A stretch of DNA of 60,968 bases, taken from positions 1 through 60,968 of the forward strand of contig JAOUKO010000002.1 in NCBI GenBank assembly GCA_029882525.1, written 5' to 3'. The stretch is from Candidatus Aminicenantes bacterium (GTDB taxonomy: Bacteria > Acidobacteriota > Aminicenantia > Aminicenantales > Aminicenantaceae). How positions within the stretch are numbered: position 1 is the stretch's first letter; every line of letters begins with the position of its first letter. Below the pieces are notes generated by a model that had not been told where the DNA came from, did no database searches, and saw nothing but the letters and a program-made list of their open reading frames with translations. Of the stretch, positions 2,011 through 58,014 are shown piece by piece. The position numbers and the translations under genes were made by a program.

Positions 2011-2094
2011 GTCCAACCCGTCCTGTTCCTCCCTTAGGCCAAAGCTGCCCATAGAAAATCACCAGGGCCATCTCTGGCTGAATCCCTGCGCAAG

Positions 2095-2463
2095 CATCTC
2101 TATTTTCTTGATAGTTACTTATGAAGATGTATTCTGTTACAGCGCCGGTTCCCCTCCATCCTAGCCAAGATCCTCCCACACTCCTTCATGGGCATCGGAT
2201 GGAGGGGAACCGCCGCCGCACTTCTCAACTCATATTAACGTAATAATTCGTGTGACATTCTCTATTGAGCGGACCTGGATGCCGCTCTCGAGCCCCTGTA
2301 GCGGAGGGGAGACCCGTCGGTTTATCCGACGGGGGGAACCGACGGGACAGGTTCCCTCGGGGTCCGGGGGCTGAGGGCGGCATCCAGGCCGCACATAGAT
2401 TGTAACCTTATTTACTGCGTTTACATGAGATCAGATGTTTCCCTCCTCACGGAAATAGAGATG
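2095..2463 (+). repeat. Mosaic palindromic repeat, copy 1 (long form H-A-T with nested B element)
   Basis: TIRs are CATCTCTATTTTCTTGA (left) and TCACGGAAATAGAGATG (right). Hairpin A stems are at 2147-2161 and 2197-2211. Hairpin B spans 2274-2388. The whole copy is the reverse complement of 23382-23750. Confidence 0.85.
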
Positions 2464-2496
2464 ATTACAATCCCTGCTCTTTTTTTAAAGGAGATG

Positions 2497-5654: not shown

Positions 5655-8018
5655 TTACTCTTTTTTCTCTTCTGTCCCGGCTTCGCCGGTGATGATTTTC
5701 TTGATATCCTCCGCAGAGGCCACACCGCTGTTGAACAGATAGCATGACGCACTAGCCAGGAGCCGTTCGAAAAAGTGTCTTTCCAGCTCCAGCCTTTCCG
5801 GTGTTTTGAGCAGAAGATGCGGGTTGTAAAACGGATGAATCTTTGAGGGGCTCAGGTCGCGCTTGAGCCCGAGGCTTTCTCCGGATTCGAGCATCCGAAG
5901 GGCATCCTCGACTTCGATCTCAACACAGGGAGGCGAGGTTGTGTCATAGCGAAGGAGGAATATCCAGCGCACGACAGATCGCTTGGCATGCTTGGCCGGA
6001 CCGTCGATCCAGTAAGGGTCAAGGAGGGCATGGGCATCTTTGGAGGCCTTGTAGCAATAAGGAGAGCCCCGGTCAAGGCGGCACTCGTCGATATTCAAAC
6101 ATTCGGCATCCTGACAATCATCCTTGCGGGTGATGACATTCTCGCACTTGCTGTTGTCGAAGAGAGGAGCCAGTCGGGGGTAGGATTCCACCGTGTTCGT
6201 CGGCAGGAAAAGCTTTCTTTCCGCGGAATCCGCCAGTGCTCTTCCACCTGAAAACCGGATAAAAAGGATATCGTTGGAGTGGAGCCGGAACCGTTCGTCC
6301 TGGAGCAGCGAGAAAAAAAGCTCTGTTTTTTTTGTCCCTTTGGGTCCCATCAGGACCACGCCATTACCGTCGATATCTGCGGACATTCCCCGGAGAGTGA
6401 AGACGTTGAAAAGCCTTTCTGAGACGTCAATGGTCAAACCCAGGGCCAGGCTGCGCAGGGAAGTGTAGTTGTCCGTGTTGATGAGGAAGCCCGTGTTCGT
6501 CTCCGAGTTATAAAAAGAGTGCGGCTCCCTGCCTGGAATGCCGTCAACAGCGTAGATGATGCCGTGAGGTTCCAGGTCGGCTTCCAGCTGAGCCGGGTAC
6601 CAGTTTTCGACCCAGAAATCATTGAGATGGGAGACGTTGGTGCGAAGCTGAACAATGACACCGTTGATGTTGGCATTCCACTCGAAATAATTTTCGTAGC
6701 TGAGATGACTTTCCATCTCAGCGACCATTACCTCTTTCATCTTGACGGAAATGGCGGGGTCCACGGGTACGGATTTCTTTTCTCTGGTTAGAGTGTTGTT
6801 GAGAGCGATATACTTCACTTTTTTGGCTGTTTTGAGCTGCCTGAGCGCTTCGATGATCCTGTCCATGCCCTTTTCCAGGTTTTCCATGGAGGTGGTGTAG
6901 GAGATCCGAATGTAGTCATCGGTTCCGAAGGCATCTCCCGGCACGATAGCCACCTTCGCTTCTTTCAACAGATAATAGGCCATCCCGTAAGAGTTTCGGA
7001 TCTGGACATTATTGAATTCCTTATCATAATAGGAGGAGAAATTGGGGAATAGATAGAATGCTCCCAGGGGCTTGAAACAGGATATTTTGGGGATGGTCTG
7101 GAGCCTCATCAGGGCGTAGTTCCGTCGTCTCTGCAGCTCCGATCTCATCTTGGAGACTTCATGCTGGGGGCCGGCCAGGGCTTCCAGGCTTGCCATCTGG
7201 GAGATCGAGCAGGCGTTGGAGGTGGTGTGGCTCTGAACCCTGCCCATGGCCCCGATGATCTCTCCAGGTCCGGCCGCGTAGCCGATTCTCCATCCGGTCA
7301 TGGAGTAAGCCTTGGAAACTCCGTTGATGATGATGGTCTTCTTTTTGACGTCCTCCCCTAAGGAGGCAAAGCTCACAAATTTGAAGTCATCGTAGACGAA
7401 TTTATCGTAGATTTCATCAGCCACAACAAAGATATCCTCATCCAGGATGATGTCAGCGATGGCTTCAAGCTCATGCCTTTTGTAGGCGGCTCCTGTGGGA
7501 TTGGAGGGGTTGTTGAGGATGATAGCCTTGGTGGCCGGTGAGATGGCAGCCTTGAGCTGGTCAGGGGTGAGGATGAACCCGTTCTCCTCCTTGGTGGGGA
7601 TGATGATGGCTTTTCCCTCGGCCAGGGAAACTGAGTGAGGATAGGTCACCCAGTACGGAGCCGGGATGATGACCTCATCGCCCCCATCGATCAACGCCTG
7701 GAAAAGATGGTAAAGGGAGCTCTTTGCTCCCGGGGAAACGATGACTTCCTCTTTGGTGTAGGAAAGACCGAAGTCTTCTTTCAGTCTGTTGATGATGGCC
7801 TGCTTGAGAGCCGGGATTCCTTCGTTGGGCGTGTATTTGGTTATGTTATCTTTGATGGCCTTGATGCCTGCCTCTTTCACGTTGTCCGGAGTGAAAAAAT
7901 CTGGCTCCCCGATGCTGAGGTCCACGATGTCAATCCCCTCATCCTTCATAGACTTGGCTTTGGCGGAGATCTTGAGGGTTGGGGATGCGCCGATTTGACT
8001 CGCTTTATCTGAGATCAT
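5655..8018 (-). CDS. Class I/II PLP aminotransferase (aspartate aminotransferase-like) fused to a ~390-aa C-terminal P-loop kinase-like domain
   Basis: N-terminal ~395 aa: IGEPDF, NPSNPTG and SKAYSMTGWRIGY (PLP lysine). The C-terminal part carries LMGPKGTKKTE (P-loop, nt 6323-6346) followed by HSNDILF, an arrangement like HprK/PEPCK-fold kinases. It is one uninterrupted 787-codon ORF. Confidence 0.7.
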   Translation of the reverse strand: MISDKASQIGASPTLKISAKAKSMKDEGIDIVDLSIGEPDFFTPDNVKEAGIKAIKDNITKYTPNEGIPALKQAIINRLKEDFGLSYTKEEVIVSPGAKSSLYHLFQALIDGGDEVIIPAPYWVTYPHSVSLAEGKAIIIPTKEENGFILTPDQLKAAISPATKAIILNNPSNPTGAAYKRHELEAIADIILDEDIFVVADEIYDKFVYDDFKFVSFASLGEDVKKKTIIINGVSKAYSMTGWRIGYAAGPGEIIGAMGRVQSHTTSNACSISQMASLEALAGPQHEVSKMRSELQRRRNYALMRLQTIPKISCFKPLGAFYLFPNFSSYYDKEFNNVQIRNSYGMAYYLLKEAKVAIVPGDAFGTDDYIRISYTTSMENLEKGMDRIIEALRQLKTAKKVKYIALNNTLTREKKSVPVDPAISVKMKEVMVAEMESHLSYENYFEWNANINGVIVQLRTNVSHLNDFWVENWYPAQLEADLEPHGIIYAVDGIPGREPHSFYNSETNTGFLINTDNYTSLRSLALGLTIDVSERLFNVFTLRGMSADIDGNGVVLMGPKGTKKTELFFSLLQDERFRLHSNDILFIRFSGGRALADSAERKLFLPTNTVESYPRLAPLFDNSKCENVITRKDDCQDAECLNIDECRLDRGSPYCYKASKDAHALLDPYWIDGPAKHAKRSVVRWIFLLRYDTTSPPCVEIEVEDALRMLESGESLGLKRDLSPSKIHPFYNPHLLLKTPERLELERHFFERLLASASCYLFNSGVASAEDIKKIITGEAGTEEKKE

Positions 8019-9452: not shown

Positions 9453-9553
9453 AGCCTCCTTGGATTAACGCCTCTATAAGGCCGCTTTGAGATATTGTTT
9501 GAGCCATAATTATAATGGCTTGTCGGTTTTTTTGGAATACTTTTTTTTGCGAT

Positions 9554-9582
9554 ATGTTATTGCGATAAAGGGATGTTGTCAA
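9554..9582 (-). promoter_or_regulatory. Sigma-70-like promoter for the flotillin gene
   Basis: The minus strand reads TTGACA-17 nt-TAACAT, about 100 nt upstream of the ATG at 9452. Confidence 0.35.
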
Positions 9583-9739: not shown

Positions 9740-10675
9740 TCATGATTGAAGCATATCTTTGAAGTAGGCGATGGTTTTCTCCAGGCCCTCATCCAGTTTG
9801 ACGTGAGGCGTCCAGGAAAGCTTTTTTTTAGCCAGGGAGATGTCCGGGCGTCTTCGAACGGGATCGTCCGCAGGCAGAGGCTTGTGGACGATTTTGGAGG
9901 CGCTTTTGGTGAGCTTGATGATCTTCTTCGCGACTTCGAGGATCGTGTGTTCTTCGGGATTTCCCAGGTTTACGGGTCCGGTGATATCTTCAGCTCCCAT
10001 TAGGGCCAGGAGAGCCTGAATGAGGTCGGAGACATAGCAGAAAGATCGAGTCTGACTTCCATCTCCGTGAACGGTCAAGGGCTCGCCTCTCAATGCCTGG
10101 ATGATAAAGTTGCTGACGGCTCTGCCGTCATTCACGGCCATCCGGGGCCCGTAGGTGTTGAATATCCGGGCAATCTTGATGTCGACTTTATTCTGGCGGT
10201 GATAGTCCATCATCAACGTCTCCGCGACTCTTTTACCCTCGTCATAACAGGCCCTGATGCCGATGGGATTGACGTTTCCCCAGTAGCTTTCGGGTTGGGG
10301 GTGGACCGTTGCGTCGCCGTATATTTCCGAGGATGAGGCCAGTAGAATGCGGGCTTTTATCCTCTTGGCCAGGCCCAGCATGTTGATGGTGCCCATGACA
10401 TTGGTTTTCACTGTTTTTATGGCATTGAGCTGGTAGTGAATCGGGGAGGCGGGGCAAGCAAGGTGGTAGATTTGATCGACTTCCAGAAAAAGAGGATGGA
10501 TGATATCATGCCGGATCAATTCGAAATAAGCGTGGGAAAAAAGATTCCGGATATTGTCCTTGAATCCAGAAAAAAAGTTATCGACACAGACAACGTCCGC
10601 ACCTTTTTCCAGGAGAGAATCGCAGAGATGGCTTCCGAGAAAGCCGGCTCCACCTGTGACTAGGATCCGTTTCAT
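9740..10675 (-). CDS. UDP-glucuronate decarboxylase (SDR family)
   Basis: [40 protein letters not shown] and [11 protein letters not shown] closely match the UXS pattern. Confidence 0.85.
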
Positions 10676-14182: not shown

Positions 14183-14487
14183 CTCTGTGCGACCTGGATG
14201 CCGCCCTCAGCCCCCGGACCCCGAGGGAACCTGTCCCGTCGGTTCCCCCCGTCGGATAAGCCGACGGGTCCCCCCTCCGCTACGGGGACTCAAGGGCGGC
14301 ATCCAGGCTCGCTCAATAGAGTATGTCAAATGAATGATTTCATTAATATGAGTTGAGAAGTGCGACGCTGGTTCCCTCCATCCAAGCCAAGACCCTCCTA
14401 CCCTCCACCATGGGCTTTGGATGGAGAGGAACCATCGCCGAACTTCCCCATCAGGTCAGATGTTCCCCTCTTCACGGAAATAGAGAT
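14183..14487. repeat. Mosaic palindromic repeat, copy 2 (left-truncated, T'(+B)-A-T)
   Basis: Hairpin B at 14193-14307, hairpin A stems at 14370-14383 and 14419-14433, right TIR CACGGAAATAGAGAT at 14473-14487. The left TIR and outer arm are missing, and the copy ends 12 nt from the lpxK ATG. Confidence 0.8.
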
Positions 14488-14630
14488 TCTTACCGTCGGC
14501 GTATTTTTTTGACATGGCCTTGGGTCTTGTGCTAATTATAGCGGCAGGCTTCGGGACTCAAGTGAGTATTTTCACCCTGCTTCCATCCATTAACTTCCTG
14601 AATGCTTGCTGTGTGAAGAAATAACGAAAA

Positions 14631-23037: not shown

Positions 23038-23093
23038 GGTAACTACATAGATAAACTAAAAGCTTGAGTTTGTCAAATGTAAGGTCATAAAAG

Positions 23094-23302
23094 CATCTCA
23101 ACCGGCCGAAACGGCTTCCCTTGAGGGACAACATCGTTGCGAAGAAACGATGTTGGGGGAATCCAAGGGGGTATGCCCTCTTGGTCGCAGGACGCTTGAT
23201 GGCGTCCGAGAAGGGGAGGCAGCGAGCTGTGAGAAGGCAGGCGAGCGTTGGAAGGGGGAAAGCGGAGCTGTCCCCCCTCCAAGGAGTTTCAGGAAGGCTA
23301 AA
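23094..23302. repeat. E-family repeat (E2) with a 159-bp hairpin-rich insert
   Basis: Modules at 23094-23128 and 23288-23302 match 396-433 and 437-451. The insert contains CAACATCGTT-gcgaag-AAACGATGTTG, CCAAGGGG-gtatg-CCCTCTTGG and GGACGC-ttgat-GGCGTCC. Confidence 0.45.
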
Positions 23303-23381
23303 CCTGAAAGGTCGCCTCGGATCTTTCCAAAAACATTTCTACTCTTCTTGGATATAAAGGATTTGGAAGTGCTTTAAGGGC

Positions 23382-23750
23382 TATCTCTATATCCGTGATA
23401 AGGGCAACATCTGATCTAATGTAAACGCAGTAAATAAGGCTGCAATCTCTGTGCGGCCTGAAGCCGCCCTCAGTCCCCGAACCCCCGAGGGAACCTGTCC
23501 CGTCAGTTCCCCCCGTCGGATAAGCCGACGGGTCCCCCCTCCGCTACGGGGGCTCGAGGGCGGCATCCAGGCCCGCTCAAGAGAGGATGTCACACGAATT
23601 ATTGGGTTGATATGAGTTGGGAAGAGTGGCGCCGGTTCCCCTCCATCCTCACCAAGACCCTCCCACCCTCCACCATAGGCTCCGGATGGAGGGGAACCGG
23701 CGCTTTAACAGATTACACCTCCATGATTAATTGTCACGGAAATAGATATG
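23382..23750 (-). repeat. Mosaic palindromic repeat, copy 3 (long form, inverted relative to copy 1)
   Basis: Collinear reverse complement of 2095-2463 and the same 369-bp length. Hairpin B at 23457-23571. Hairpin A has 20-bp perfect stems at 23629-23648 and 23684-23703. The 35-nt loop (23649-23683) is flipped relative to copy 1. Confidence 0.85.
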
Positions 23751-23766
23751 ATTCCCTGATAAGAGA

Positions 23767-27091: not shown

Positions 27092-27158
27092 CTCTGAAAG
27101 CGGAAGGCCCTGCCTTCTCCTGTCAGGAAGAAATCTGACTCAAATTTATGATTTTTTA

Positions 27159-27187
27159 ATTCTTTTCTAAAAGACCATTTTTGTCAA
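27159..27187 (-). promoter_or_regulatory. Sigma-70-like promoter for the ABC importer operon
   Basis: The minus strand reads TTGACA-17 nt-AAGAAT, about 70 nt upstream of the ATG at 27091 and immediately beside repeat copy 4. Confidence 0.35.
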
Positions 27188-27201
27188 GCTGGGGTCGGAA
27201 G

Positions 27202-27373
27202 AATCTCTATTTCCATGACAATTAATTATGAATGTGTAATCTGTTAAAGCGCCGGTTCCCCTCCATCCTTGCCAAGACCCTCCCGCCCTCCTTCATGGGC
27301 TTCGGATGGAGGAGAACCGTCGCCGCAATTCTCCATTAGGTCAGATGTTGCCCTTATCACGGATATAGAGATG
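27202..27373 (+). repeat. Mosaic palindromic repeat, copy 4 (minimal 172-bp form H-A-T, no B element)
   Basis: AATCTCTATTTCCATGA...TCACGGATATAGAGATG. Hairpin A stems at 27249-27268 and 27304-27319. Confidence 0.85.
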
Positions 27374-27394
27374 ATTATGTTGCGGTCAGATTTC

Positions 27395-27423
27395 TTGACT
27401 TTTAAGGGTAATGAATCTAACAT
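27395..27423 (+). promoter_or_regulatory. Sigma-70-like promoter for leuS
   Basis: TTGACT-17 nt-TAACAT, 22 nt outside the repeat TIR and about 90 nt upstream of the ATG at 27512. Confidence 0.35.
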
Positions 27424-27511
27424 TTATGATTGAATTTCTGGAGCGGAAAAACAGAAGAGAAGTCCTTTCTCTTCCTTTTTCTCCGTAAAAGAAGTTGAGG
27501 AACCGCGAGAA

Positions 27512-29989: not shown

Positions 29990-30051
29990 ATTTTTTCCGG
30001 AATTGGCATGAGAAAATGGTTCTCTTCCATTGTGTGTAAGTAATTTTATGA

Positions 30052-30114
30052 GTAAAATACGCGGAAATGGCATCGCTCCCTTCAGGTTTTTAACGCCATT
30101 CCCGTGTATTTTAC
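30052..30114 (+). repeat. D hairpin repeat, copy D1
   Basis: GTAAAATACGCGGAAATGGCAT..loop..ACGCCATTCCCGTGTATTTTAC forms a ~22-bp stem. About 90% identical to 51992-52052. Confidence 0.8.
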
Positions 30115-30149
30115 CTACACTACCTGGAAGAGAATCGAAAAAATTAATT

Positions 30150-38094: not shown

Positions 38095-38210
38095 ATCACA
38101 ATCATTATATTTTTCGCGTTTTTTAAAGTCAAAGGGACGTTTGGCTCCACCCCTTATCCTCAGGCCAGGTTTATATAAAAAATTCCAAGTTGTGAATTGT
38201 TTCTGGAAGA

Positions 38211-38383
38211 ATCTTTCTTTCCGTGATGAGGGAAACATCTGACCTAACAGGGAACGGCGGTGACGGTTTCCCCTTCATCCGAAGTCCATGGTGGGGGGTG
38301 GGAGGGTCTTGGCTTGGATGGAGGGGAAACCGGCGTCGCGATAGATTACACCTTTATTATTAATTGTCACAGAAATAGAGATG
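38211..38383 (-). repeat. Mosaic palindromic repeat, copy 5 (minimal form, T'-A-H' on the plus strand)
   Basis: ATCTTTCTTTCCGTGA...TCACAGAAATAGAGATG. Hairpin A stems at 38265-38280 and 38316-38331. The loop is G-rich on the plus strand. Confidence 0.8.
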
Positions 38384-38395
38384 TCCCCTTTTTCT

Positions 38396-38482
38396 AATGT
38401 AAACGCAGTAAATATGGTTACAATCTCTAGGCGGCCCGAAGCCGCCCAAGATGGAATGTCACAAGAATTATTGCATTAATAC
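38396..38482. repeat. Stand-alone B element lacking the 115-bp core hairpin
   Basis: AATGTAAACGCAGTAAATATGGTTACAATCTCTAGGCGGCC-cgaa-GCCGCC-CAAGATGGAATGTCACAAGAATTATTGCATTAATA matches both flanks of the B element in copies 1, 3 and 6. A 6-bp-stem mini-hairpin replaces the core. Confidence 0.7.
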
Positions 38483-38530
38483 TAGGAAGAGTAGCCTGTC
38501 CCCTTTTTTTGTGGTAAATTGAGAGAGTCC

Positions 38531-51405: not shown

Positions 51406-51546
51406 GGGGTCAGGGCTCGACATTAGACACTTCAGGACCAGTCGTTATCAATAGTGGACTGAGTTAGGCAAAATACAGTTTCCAGCTATACTAACAAATA
51501 AGGCTTAGCTTCAATTCTAAATTGTCTAATGTCGAGCCCTGACCCC
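51406..51546. repeat. 24-bp perfect inverted repeat (93-bp spacer); possible terminator between convergent genes
   Basis: GGGGTCAGGGCTCGACATTAGACA at 51406-51429 pairs with TGTCTAATGTCGAGCCCTGACCCC at 51523-51546, followed by TTTTATTT. It is preceded by a tandem GCCGATGGGGTCA x2 at 51386-51412. Confidence 0.7.
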
Positions 51547-51932: not shown

Positions 51933-51991
51933 GAATACTCCTGAATTATTTTAAATGGTTCCCTTCCATTTTGTGAGGGTAGTTTGATGAT

Positions 51992-52052
51992 TAAAATACA
52001 CGGAAATGGCATCGCTCCCTTCAGATTTTTTACGCCATTCCCGTGTATTTTA
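51992..52052 (+). repeat. D hairpin repeat, copy D2
   Basis: TAAAATACACGGAAATGGCATCGCTCCCTTCAGATTTTTTACGCCATTCCCGTGTATTTTA. Same orientation as D1. Confidence 0.8.
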
Positions 52053-52205
52053 CCTGTACTATTGATATCCGCTTCCATCTCATTTCCTGCGCAAAAAGCG
52101 GATAGCGCGTGGGGTTTGAGATGCGGAAGAGGTGAACTTGAGTTTGGGGACCTTTGGTATCTCCCCAAATATCTAAAAAAATTTATGTTTATTTTTTATT
52201 TAAAA

Positions 52206-56888: not shown

Positions 56889-57537
56889 AGAGTCTTTCCG
56901 CAATGCTTAAGAATTCAAGGGAAAAATCCTCTATTTCCGTGATGATGTTTTTTATGCGGTGGAGGTAATAATTGTAGGCGATGACAGCTGGGATGGCGGC
57001 AAAGAGTCCGAGAGCTGTGGCGATGAGCGCTTCGGCGATACCTGGAGCAACCGTGACCAGGCTTGCTGATCTCTGGACCTCGATATTCAAAAAGGCATCC
57101 ATGATTCCCCAGACGGTTCCGAAGAGGCCGATGAACGGGGTCACGCTTCCTGTTGTGGCCAGGAAGCTCATCATGTTTTCCAGCCTGGCAATTTCCTGGT
57201 TGGATGCCTTGGCCATAGCCCTGTTTATACTCTCCAGTCCTTCCGTTGTTAAATTCCCTTTGCTGGATTTGCTTAAATAAGCAAACTCTTTGTATCCAGC
57301 CTGAAAGAGAGACGCAACAGGGCTGAGCTTGTATATTTTCGAAGCCTTGTTCACCTCTGATAAGTCATTGCTTCTGCGGAAGATCTTGAGGAATTTTTTG
57401 GATTGAGCTGAAGCGGATTTCATGGCTTTTCTTTTGAAAAAGATGATCGCCCAGGAAAATACCGAAAAAAAAATGAGGATGAGCAGTACAAGCTGGACGA
57501 CGATACTCGCATCTCCGATCAGTTTGAATACGTTCAT
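56878..57537 (-). CDS. tolQ: TolQ/ExbB (MotA family) proton channel
   Basis: The start at MNVFKLIGDASIVVQLVLLIL aligns with TolQ N-termini. TVAPGIAEALIATALGL. The longer ORF to 57606 would begin inside repeat copy 6. Confidence 0.85.
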   Translation of the reverse strand: MNVFKLIGDASIVVQLVLLILIFFSVFSWAIIFFKRKAMKSASAQSKKFLKIFRRSNDLSEVNKASKIYKLSPVASLFQAGYKEFAYLSKSSKGNLTTEGLESINRAMAKASNQEIARLENMMSFLATTGSVTPFIGLFGTVWGIMDAFLNIEVQRSASLVTVAPGIAEALIATALGLFAAIPAVIAYNYYLHRIKNIITEIEDFSLEFLSIAERLYGP

Positions 57538-57603
57538 CTTACTGAAGAAAAAGTAGCATATGCCAGGTTTAAAGTCAAACTGGCGGTTGGCATGTTGAAT
57601 CAG

Positions 57604-57975
57604 CATCTCTCTTTTATGATCACAGGTACATCTGACCTAATGTAGAGATGCGGCGGCGGTTCCCCTCCATCCAAGCCAAGACCCTCCCACCCACCGCCAT
57701 GGGCTTCGGATAGAAGGAAACCGCCACCGCACTTCCCCACTCATATTAACGCAATAATTCGTTTGACATCCTCTGTTGAGCGGGTCTGGATGCCGCCCTC
57801 TAGCCCCCGTAGCGGAGGGGGGACCCGTCGGCTTATCCGACGGGGGGAACCGACGGGACTGGTTCCCTCGGGGGTCCGGGGGCTGAGGACGGCATCCAGG
57901 CCGCACAGAGATTGCAACCTTATTTACTGCGTTACCATTAGCTCAGATGTTTTTCCCAATGCGGAAATAGAGATG
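57604..57975. repeat. Mosaic palindromic repeat, copy 6 (T'-A-T(+B))
   Basis: Left arm CATCTCTCTTTTATGATCACAGGTACATCTGACCTAATG is the reverse complement of the T arm. Hairpin A stems at 57658-57672 and 57708-57722 (3 mismatches). Hairpin B at 57785-57900. The right TIR ends at 57975. Confidence 0.85.
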
Positions 57976-57985
57976 CTGACTCACG

Positions 57986-58014
57986 TTGACAAAATATCGA
58001 TTAAATAATAGATT
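57986..58014 (+). promoter_or_regulatory. Sigma-70-like promoter for trkH
   Basis: TTGACA-17 nt-TAGATT, 10 nt outside the repeat TIR. Confidence 0.3.

Follow-up and report, generated by a model that had tools for sequence, protein, structure and literature searches.

Here we report that a 60,968-nt stretch of DNA from a Candidatus Aminicenantes bacterium (contig JAOUKO010000002.1 of assembly GCA_029882525.1, positions 1 to 60,968 of the forward strand; the whole stretch is called the window below) carries, at six loci, copies of a single repeat family. With a probability of about 0.85–0.9 we take this family to be a previously undescribed MITE (a miniature transposable element with inverted repeats), that is, a small non-coding DNA transposon, of uncultured Aminicenantes sediment bacteria. 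The architecture is that of an ordinary MITE, and the unusual part is a sharply defined insertion phase relative to the -35 hexamers of neighbouring promoters. The evidence is entirely computational, and the metagenome contigs used for comparison mix strains.

Repeat detection tied the six loci together by blocks of 60–270 nt with 80–97% identity in both orientations, and the 17-nt terminal inverted repeat (TIR) word CATCTCTATTTCCGTGA, with up to 3 mismatches allowed, was matched 11 times in the window where 0.26 matches were expected, so the original prediction, made from the window alone, that all six loci share one family is borne out. Further copies were collected from genomes (one genome per species) and metagenomes with a pattern of hairpin A, the central hairpin of the element, and the sample is therefore biased to copies with an intact hairpin A. 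The basic unit is about 182 nt with its tips, and 36 of the 46 complete elements measured 172–180 nt between the AAG and CTT boundaries. When the outward flanks of 147 unique ends were aligned, the conserved end sequence ran on as ...GAGATGCTT(A/C)C, which makes the TIR about 22 nt, G(G/T)AAGCATCTCTATTTCCGTGA, rather than the 17 bp or so first proposed; the elements end G(G/T)AAGCATC...GATGCTT(A/C)C, and the TIR columns were 82% complementary in 34 copies. Between the TIRs lie two kinds of internal arm, H and T, and the commonest arrangement, TIR-H-A-T-TIR, is exactly that of copy 4 of the window. Hairpin A has a 15–20-bp stem (a 20-bp inverted repeat) around a 35-nt C-rich loop and was present in all six loci, and a GC-rich hairpin B of about 115 nt was present in four window copies; on reading the six loci, both arms and both hairpins were found as they had been described. 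Inspection gave the element no coding capacity, its sole open reading frame (ORF)-like string of 14–24 codons being unconserved. A small peptide was also considered, but it was rejected because the majority variant has no candidate start codon (CATTGTG, not CATGGTG).

Direct repeats of 9 bp lie immediately outside the tips of the 46 complete elements, in a fixed register 2 nt outside AAG...CTT. The two repeats matched at 9/9 positions in 4 elements, at 8/9 in 10 and at 7/9 in 12, while the control, in which left flanks were paired with the right flanks of other elements, gave 0.05, 0.7 and 4.35. Filled and empty alleles were also found: L027 (loci with L numbers are the related sequences recovered) is filled and L106 is empty, with flanks 91–93% identical. 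Four syntenic loci of 22.5 kb (L126–L129) were then reached via LeuRS homologues. Site 3 of the window, where the whole copy 3 insertion lies, was empty in L126 (LeuRS 96% identical; the empty allele reads ...TTTGTCAAATGGAAGGTGATAAGAGGCTATTTCC) and in L129; site 4 was empty in L129, where its two -35 boxes are only 20 nt apart; and at site 5 the element was absent from L127 and L129. The copies per syntenic 22.5 kb numbered 3 (window), 2, 1, 0 and 0. The duplications and empty alleles overturn the initial impression that there were no obvious target-site duplications, and the comparison of related genomes that had been proposed as a check revealed presence/absence polymorphism at orthologous sites, which, judged from these alignments, points to mobility of the element among related strains. 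The TIRs, the 9-bp duplications and the filled and empty alleles together argue for a MITE that derives from a DDE transposon and was moved by a transposase that made 9-bp staggered cuts.

One further pair of loci, L079 (12366-12398) and L080 (861-1038), has flanks 97–98% identical, with a full element in one strain and a degenerate TIR–TIR palindrome of about 55 nt in the other, the repeats of which differ at 5/17 positions. This difference is not a simple deletion; an older relic may have received an insertion or been converted.

To analyse the position of promoters, related flanks were collapsed to 137 independent ends and the background was taken from offsets 24–109. TTGAC started at offset 18 in 18 of the 137 ends, against a background of 0.22 per position (Poisson P = 2e-28), and the counts at offsets 17, 18, 19 and 20 were 4, 18, 2 and 0, which means that 24 ends (about 18%) had TTGAC at offsets 17–19. 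Sixteen of these 24 phased ends also had a -10-like TAnnnT at the right spacing. The information in the flanks peaked only at the two tip bases, at offsets 18–22 (TTGAC) after ...GCTT, and at offsets 41–42 (TA), where the -10 hexamer starts 17 nt past the -35 hexamer. Read outward, the geometry is thus a tip of 2 nt, the 9-bp duplication, 7 nt and TTGAC, and the duplicated target lies at about -51 to -43 of a promoter firing away from the element; the reverse motif was not enriched in the flanks of the element ends. Among the 46 complete elements, 17 (about 37%) were phased on one side (7 bp ± 1 upstream of TTGAC(A/T)) and none on both. Phased ends made up 17/74 of the T ends and 7/63 of the H ends, a difference that was not significant (p = 0.076). 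A second MITE family in the same DNA had 0 of 20 ends phased. The -35 hexamer beside the future duplication was already present in 3/3 usable empty alleles, so the promoter was neither made by the element nor evolved afterwards; the promoter phased with copy 4 is that of LeuRS, TTGACT-N17-TAACAT, which is conserved. The nearness of TTGAC(A/T) boxes that had been noticed in the window is real, and it sharpens to an exact phase (offset 18).

In the mechanism we propose, the elements would be non-coding deletion derivatives of an insertion sequence (IS), and a transposase acting in trans would bind the TIRs of about 22 bp and cut the target with a 9-bp stagger. The transposition complex may recognise the -35 hexamer, or something bound to it, and cut one and a half helical turns upstream. 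We give an even chance to the idea that the transposase picks its target via the sigma-70-type -35 hexamer, either as a pseudo-end or via promoter-bound RNA polymerase, and inserts exactly 7 bp upstream. The pseudo-end route is speculative: the inner TIR carries GTGACA 19–24 nt from the tip, the target has TTGACA 17–22 nt from the (far) target cut in the same orientation, and the end-binding domain of the transposase might read the promoter as an end. The inward GTGACA-N16-TAATCT of the H arm would fit derivation from a promoter-bearing left end of an IS. Several searches for an autonomous partner were made. Among TIR pairs spaced 450–4000 nt, the sole finds were a kinase gene (L065) and a chance site at window position 56923, large indels between orthologues were ordinary genes, and no IS came out of a general scan for inverted repeats that took in all loci; in the viral collection the TIR had 0 matches and the hairpin pattern had one chance match.

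It is rather probable, on the evidence of the flanks, that the phase reflects insertion-site selection beside sigma-70-type -35 hexamers and not selection after insertion, because tolerance alone would hardly yield a peak one nucleotide wide and the other family has no peak. Several points weigh against this reading and the proposed mechanism. Only about 18% of ends (37% of elements) are phased, and the remaining insertions have no target motif; the control family is small (20 ends; P about 0.02); and the pseudo-end idea is off by 2 nt in register (17–22 vs 19–24). At site 4, L127 and L128 have small insertions of unrelated kinds in this very position, so the gap between the divergent -35 boxes is also a place where insertions are simply tolerated. 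Neither an autonomous element nor a transposase with such ends turned up in the window (where the original prediction had already seen no transposase), in the roughly 1.1 Mb of related loci or among the viral contigs, which leaves the 9-bp duplications to carry the DDE mechanism; many accepted MITE families are also without a known autonomous partner, so we do not treat the missing partner as disqualifying. The phase could in principle also come from selection after insertion. Under that explanation, insertion is random and either compact intergenic regions go on functioning only when the insertion lies just upstream of a -35 hexamer, or the promoter gains from a terminal repeat placed at about -54 to -75 (as a binding site or bent DNA) and the copy is kept. 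Such selection would suit the findings that the retained copies are all intergenic and adjoin housekeeping genes, that orthologous copies have been kept across strains about 10–15% diverged, and that site 4, between two divergent -35 boxes, independently took three different small insertions in three lineages, like a “safe haven”. However, a tolerated zone predicts a broad distribution with a lower bound rather than a one-nucleotide peak (18 ends at offset 18 vs 4, 2 and 0 at the offsets around it), the other MITE family of the same genomes has no such peak, and positive selection would be needed on about a third of the copies, so we consider it unlikely that selection produced the phase instead of target choice.

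Two readings in which the hairpins themselves are the functional unit were also weighed against the MITE reading. Both single strands fold far better than shuffles (z = -5 to -9.6), and as RNA the G-rich strand folds better (-72.6 vs -58.6 kcal/mol). Hairpin A is strong, its C-rich loop resembles an anti-Shine-Dalgarno sequence and is biased in orientation (56 standard vs 9 flipped), and its wobble-type mismatches are asymmetric (C·A 49 vs G·U 15), with no strand asymmetry in the TIR pair (39 vs 50). The element might then be a multi-copy structured RNA gene or a cis-regulatory RNA, e.g. a small RNA that binds Shine-Dalgarno sequences through the C-rich loop CCCUCCCACCCUCC, its dispersal being secondary. 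We find this improbable, and the element is probably not a structured RNA: RNAalifold reproduced the stems only in part and its covariation term was about zero, hairpin A shows near invariance in place of covariation, with change on both sides in 4/20 pairs and almost no compensatory change, and the mismatch excess comes mainly from one or two columns. An apparently far higher conservation of hairpin A was mostly an artefact of the scan pattern, and outside the pattern its identity to the consensus was only slightly higher than that of the arms (0.88–0.91 vs 0.82–0.85). Moreover, the flanking promoters are directed away from the element, copies lie in both orientations, the loop flips between orthologues, and no terminator-like site was found in the consensus-like copy L077, the one scanned. 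Rfam had 0 matches in the whole window at the gathering threshold, and a permissive search with copy 1 gave nothing credible (best E = 0.7, 12.5 bits vs a gathering score of 37), and the family remains unclassified, as first reported. Spread as REP/BIME-like elements (REPINs) by a RAYT (Y1, IS200/IS605-like) transposase acting on single-stranded hairpins would agree with the strong folding of the single strands, with the palindromic, intergenic, modular and high-copy character of the family and with GTAGCGGAGGG-like words in hairpin B. But the elements are flanked by 9-bp duplications and RAYT/IS200-type movement, to our knowledge, leaves no target-site duplication, which leads us to exclude a RAYT/REP mechanism; the unit is also 182 bp with 22-bp TIRs, not a hairpin pair of 20–40 nt, and a search that was not exhaustive saw no Y1/RAYT transposase gene near any copy. 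This reading is highly improbable, and of the likeness to BIME/REP mosaics or MITEs that was drawn at the outset only the MITE part survives.

Two properties of the hairpin-A loop were seen in passing. In the majority variant it holds TTGCCA-N16-CACAAT, which scores 9/12 in L077 but as a candidate internal promoter is weak, G+C-rich and variable, and the direction of this weak promoter-like match would switch on loop flip. The complement of the loop (e.g. 27269-27303, bottom strand) reads GGAGGGTGGGAGGG(TCTTGG), a run of G-tracts, with G-quadruplex potential and, on the C-rich strand, i-motif potential.

The copies of the window are listed in Table 1. The six loci first proposed were all retained, but their limits had to be redrawn to those given there. 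With six copies in 61 kb, this lineage has roughly one per 10 kb, and the copies lie 3.6–30 kb apart in both orientations among housekeeping genes. The ORF map agreed with the earlier observation that every copy lies between ORFs, four of the six between divergent genes; the adjoining genes encode LpxK, LeuRS, FtsY, RecJ, an ABC ATPase, an acyltransferase and pilin-like proteins. The spacing is not CRISPR-like, as had been said, and the window copies showed none of the marks of a CRISPR array or an integron attC array (regular spacing, same orientation, cas or intI genes). Just upstream of copy 1 lie tandem paralogous genes (780-1319 and 1453-2010; DNA 70% identical over 188 nt), the proteins of which have an N-terminal methylation motif and are type IV pilin-like.

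Table 1 Copies of the MITE family in the window, with their parts, target-site duplications and flanking promoter boxes
Feature	Positions	Strand	Structure or remark
Copy 1, long form	2090..2468	+	TIR - H - hairpin A - T arm interrupted by E2/hairpin B - TIR
Copy 1, hairpin A	2142-2216		
Copy 1, E2	~2227-2426		
Copy 1, hairpin B	2273-2388		
Copy 1, target-site duplication	2081-2089 and 2469-2477		perfect 9 bp, AATCCCTGC on both sides
Copy 2, left-truncated	14183..14493	+	reversed E2/B - inner T' - hairpin A - T arm - TIR, ending ...GAGATTCTTAC
Copy 2, reversed E2 with hairpin B	14193-14354		hairpin B 14193-14307
Copy 2, hairpin A	14364-14438		
Copy 2, flanking promoter box	14509-14514		TTGACA, 17 nt beyond ...CTT
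Copy 3, composite	~23091-23755	-	TIR fragment - foreign repeat - T' TIR - T' arm with E2/B - hairpin A - H' - TIR
Copy 3, TIR fragment	23091-23099		9 nt
Copy 3, foreign repeat	~23100-23381		unrelated, ~280 nt
Copy 3, hairpin B	23463-23571		
Copy 3, hairpin A	23629-23703		
Copy 4, basic short form	27197..27378	+	182 nt; TIR - H - hairpin A - T - TIR
Copy 4, hairpin A	27249-27323		
Copy 4, target-site duplication	27188-27196 / 27379-27387		GCTGGGGTC / GTTGCGGTC
Copy 4, LeuRS promoter	27395-27400		TTGACT -N17-TAACAT, 18 nt after ...ATT
Copy 4, divergent promoter box	27187-27182	-	TTGACA
Copy 5, short form reversed	38205..38388	-	T' - hairpin A - H'
Copy 5, hairpin A	~38264-38332		G-rich loop on + strand
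Extra piece beside copy 5	38394..38496	+	inner T' fragment with E2; hairpin B collapsed to GGCGGCCCGAAGCCGCC
Copy 6, long form, exchanged arm	57599..57980	+	TIR - T' - hairpin A - T arm with E2/B - TIR
Copy 6, hairpin A	57653-57727		
Copy 6, hairpin B	57786-57900		
Copy 6, target-site duplication	57590-57598 / 57981-57989		GCATGTTGA / TCACGTTGA
Copy 6, flanking promoter box	57986-57991		TTGACA

The mosaic of building blocks that was described originally is indeed modular, but it is better described as one basic 182-bp unit with a nested second palindromic module and secondary rearrangements. The second module, E2, is about 200 nt, has hairpin B at its centre and occurs in the long copies at a constant position of the T arm, with ...CTTCTCA on one side and ATTAG... 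on the other. L014 holds the orthologue of copy 1, the same element but lacking E2/B and having its hairpin-A loop in the opposite orientation. Long and short forms were both transposed, because both were found at many unrelated sites. Copy 5 and its orthologue L056 have identical arms and an inverted hairpin-A loop, and the loop of copy 3 is flipped relative to its arms; across the family, the C-rich loop is on the H-to-T strand (H-A-T) in the 56 copies of standard orientation. Arm exchange was seen as T'-A-T forms, window copies 2 and 6 among them. The hairpin B that has collapsed beside copy 5 is kept at about 85 nt in the L056 counterpart, and in L027 a deletion fuses hairpin A to hairpin B at the common word GGGGAACCG. 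Small repeats are nested in the element (copy 3 has one of about 280 nt within its TIR, and L126, L029, L105, L095 and L097 each have a palindrome of the GGGGACGTTCCC type), and mini-relics of two degenerate TIRs were found in L079 and L065. We suggest that, once the element has inserted, the 20-bp inverted repeat of hairpin A and the palindromic E2/B module may drive loop inversion, arm exchange, the collapse of hairpin B and the nesting of small repeats, which together give the mosaic look; the inversions and exchanges would be mediated by the inverted repeat of hairpin A.

A 12-nt direct repeat TGTCCCCTTTTT (38382-38393 and 38497-38508) flanks the 103-nt E2-bearing piece beside copy 5; at that position L126 has only CTCGAAAAAGTAGCC, and its E2 is on the other side, within the T' arm. 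This suggests that E2, or the fragment carrying it, may be able to move or convert independently. The G-rich insert of about 280 nt in the TIR of copy 3 is flanked by GCATCTC / GCTATCTC, and parts of it recur in another element copy, L092 (~7700-7800), and at site 5 of L128; it is probably another small mobile repeat. Copies of the main family are repeatedly broken up by a short palindrome, ATATGGGGACGTTCCC...GGGAACGTCCCC, e.g. in the hairpin-A loop or the T arm (L126 ~9770-9850; L029, L105, L095, L097 and L116).

Other repeats were seen alongside the main family. The second MITE-like family, which is unrelated, is represented in the window by a 141-nt copy (51406-51546) with 30-nt TIRs GGGGTCAGGGCTCGACATTAGACACTTCAG and by a solo end near 9541-9563, its 20 unique ends being counted over the window and the loci; relatives are inserted at site 4 in L127 and at site 5 in L129. 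Site 4 (27092-27511, counterparts L126–L129) is a gap of about 20 nt that separates the -35 box of the ABC-ATPase gene from that of the divergent LeuRS gene. It is empty in L129, holds the main MITE in the window and L126, a different element of about 90 nt in L127 and an insertion of about 150 nt in L128; it is an insertion hot spot for unrelated elements. A third repeat, hairpin-built and intergenic, occurs at window positions 30014-30122, 51953-52061 and 241-290 with 78–88% identity, reads AAAATACRCGGAAATGGC ... GCCATTCCCGTGTATTTT with the loop ATCGCTCCCTTCAGRTTTTTAAC, has a relative at site 3 of L127 and had no match in the Rfam scan of the window. In L068 (2071-6057), a high-identity inverted/direct repeat of 28–30 nt, AGGGGTCGCATCTTAACATTTAACATTTCA, occurs in at least 5 places within 4 kb of a sediment contig.

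The genome scan with the hairpin-A pattern matched Candidatus Aminicenantes metagenome-assembled genomes (Kmv29 on four contigs and CSMAG_549 on one contig) and one contig binned as “Eubacteriales” (L010), while two other matches were due to chance. The “Eubacteriales” hit may be a binning error. The metagenome scan with the same pattern gave at least 113 stretches, which, judging by the record names, come from estuarine and marine sediment samples; in one of these names, SMTZ1 presumably stands for the sulfate-methane transition zone. The LeuRS of the window is 76–79% identical to proteins named Candidatus Aminicenantes, and proteins encoded in the window recur on ENA and JGI metagenome contigs. 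The family was found to be confined to a lineage within Candidatus Aminicenantes.

Correia elements (CREE/NEMIS) of Neisseria are non-coding elements of 100–160 bp with TIRs of about 26 bp and hundreds of copies, which are intergenic and often lie by promoters, come in a long form and an internally deleted short form and are not known to have an autonomous partner. The present family resembles them in all these respects, being small, non-coding, TIR-bounded, multi-copy, intergenic, promoter-adjacent, of long and short forms and with no partner found. However, Correia elements duplicate TA and supply their own promoter and IHF-site sequences, whereas here the duplication is 9 bp and the promoter is external to the element, on the far side of the duplication, and stands already in the empty alleles. 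Similarity in sequence between the two is not to be expected. With BIME/REP elements and REPINs the family shares mosaic palindromic units, alternating orientation, intergenic position and two arm types (H/T here, Y/Z in BIMEs). A REP unit measures 20–40 nt and has GTAG conserved at its 5' side, and REPs go together with a Y1 transposase and lack target-site duplications and long TIRs, in contrast to the 9-bp duplications, 182-nt unit and 22-nt TIRs found here. Minute hairpin-loop inversions have reportedly been described in chloroplast non-coding DNA by Kelchner and Wendel in 1996, and in both cases a short loop within a 15–20-bp inverted repeat is found in either orientation in close relatives; but the genetic system is another one, and here the hairpin is within a mobile element and its orientation is biased (56:9).

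A 2024 review of prokaryotic MITEs lists QMITE2 of Coxiella with 7–9 bp direct repeats and 23–29 bp TIRs (PMC10969869). QMITE2, ERIC, RUP and BrickBuilt resemble the present family in size class, TIRs, direct repeats, strong folding, intergenic position and clustering or nesting (PMC10969869). The insertion preferences given in that review are only intergenic regions, 3' untranslated regions and clustering, and a fixed phase to a -35 hexamer, such as the 7-bp phase found here, is absent from its preference section (PMC10969869). A full-text search of open papers, which was not exhaustive, found no paper on MITEs in Aminicenantes. A literature search for bacterial precedents of the promoter phase, again not exhaustive, gave only eukaryotic analogues. 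Ty1 and Ty3 of yeast, which go to Pol III genes, and Tf1 of fission yeast, which goes to Pol II promoters, insert at a defined short distance upstream of the transcription start and leave the promoter intact (PMC5911963, PMC10050235, PMC3553992). The likeness is in outcome only, i.e., promoter-proximal insertion at a set distance; those elements are eukaryotic long terminal repeat retrotransposons tethered by integrase–protein contacts, whereas the present family is a bacterial DNA transposon relic.

This high-copy mobile family, whose hosts belong to a large sediment phylum that is uncultured, is in none of the resources covered (Rfam and the full text of open papers). With roughly one copy in every 10 kb it breaks metagenome assemblies, because several of the genome-scan matches lie at contig ends, and it marks strain-level differences. 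Its central hairpin turns a simple MITE into a mosaic by loop flipping, arm exchange, palindrome collapse and nesting. If the target choice is true, docking at a fixed distance from the -35 hexamer would be a new target-selection mode for bacterial elements and a natural “safe-harbour” insertion rule, and the DNA upstream of -44 of housekeeping promoters would have been repeatedly replaced, with possible effects on regulation. Such a “promoter-docking”, gene-avoiding element would be a bacterial counterpart of the transcription-machinery-guided integration of Ty3 and Tf1, and it may rewire the upstream regulation of its hosts.

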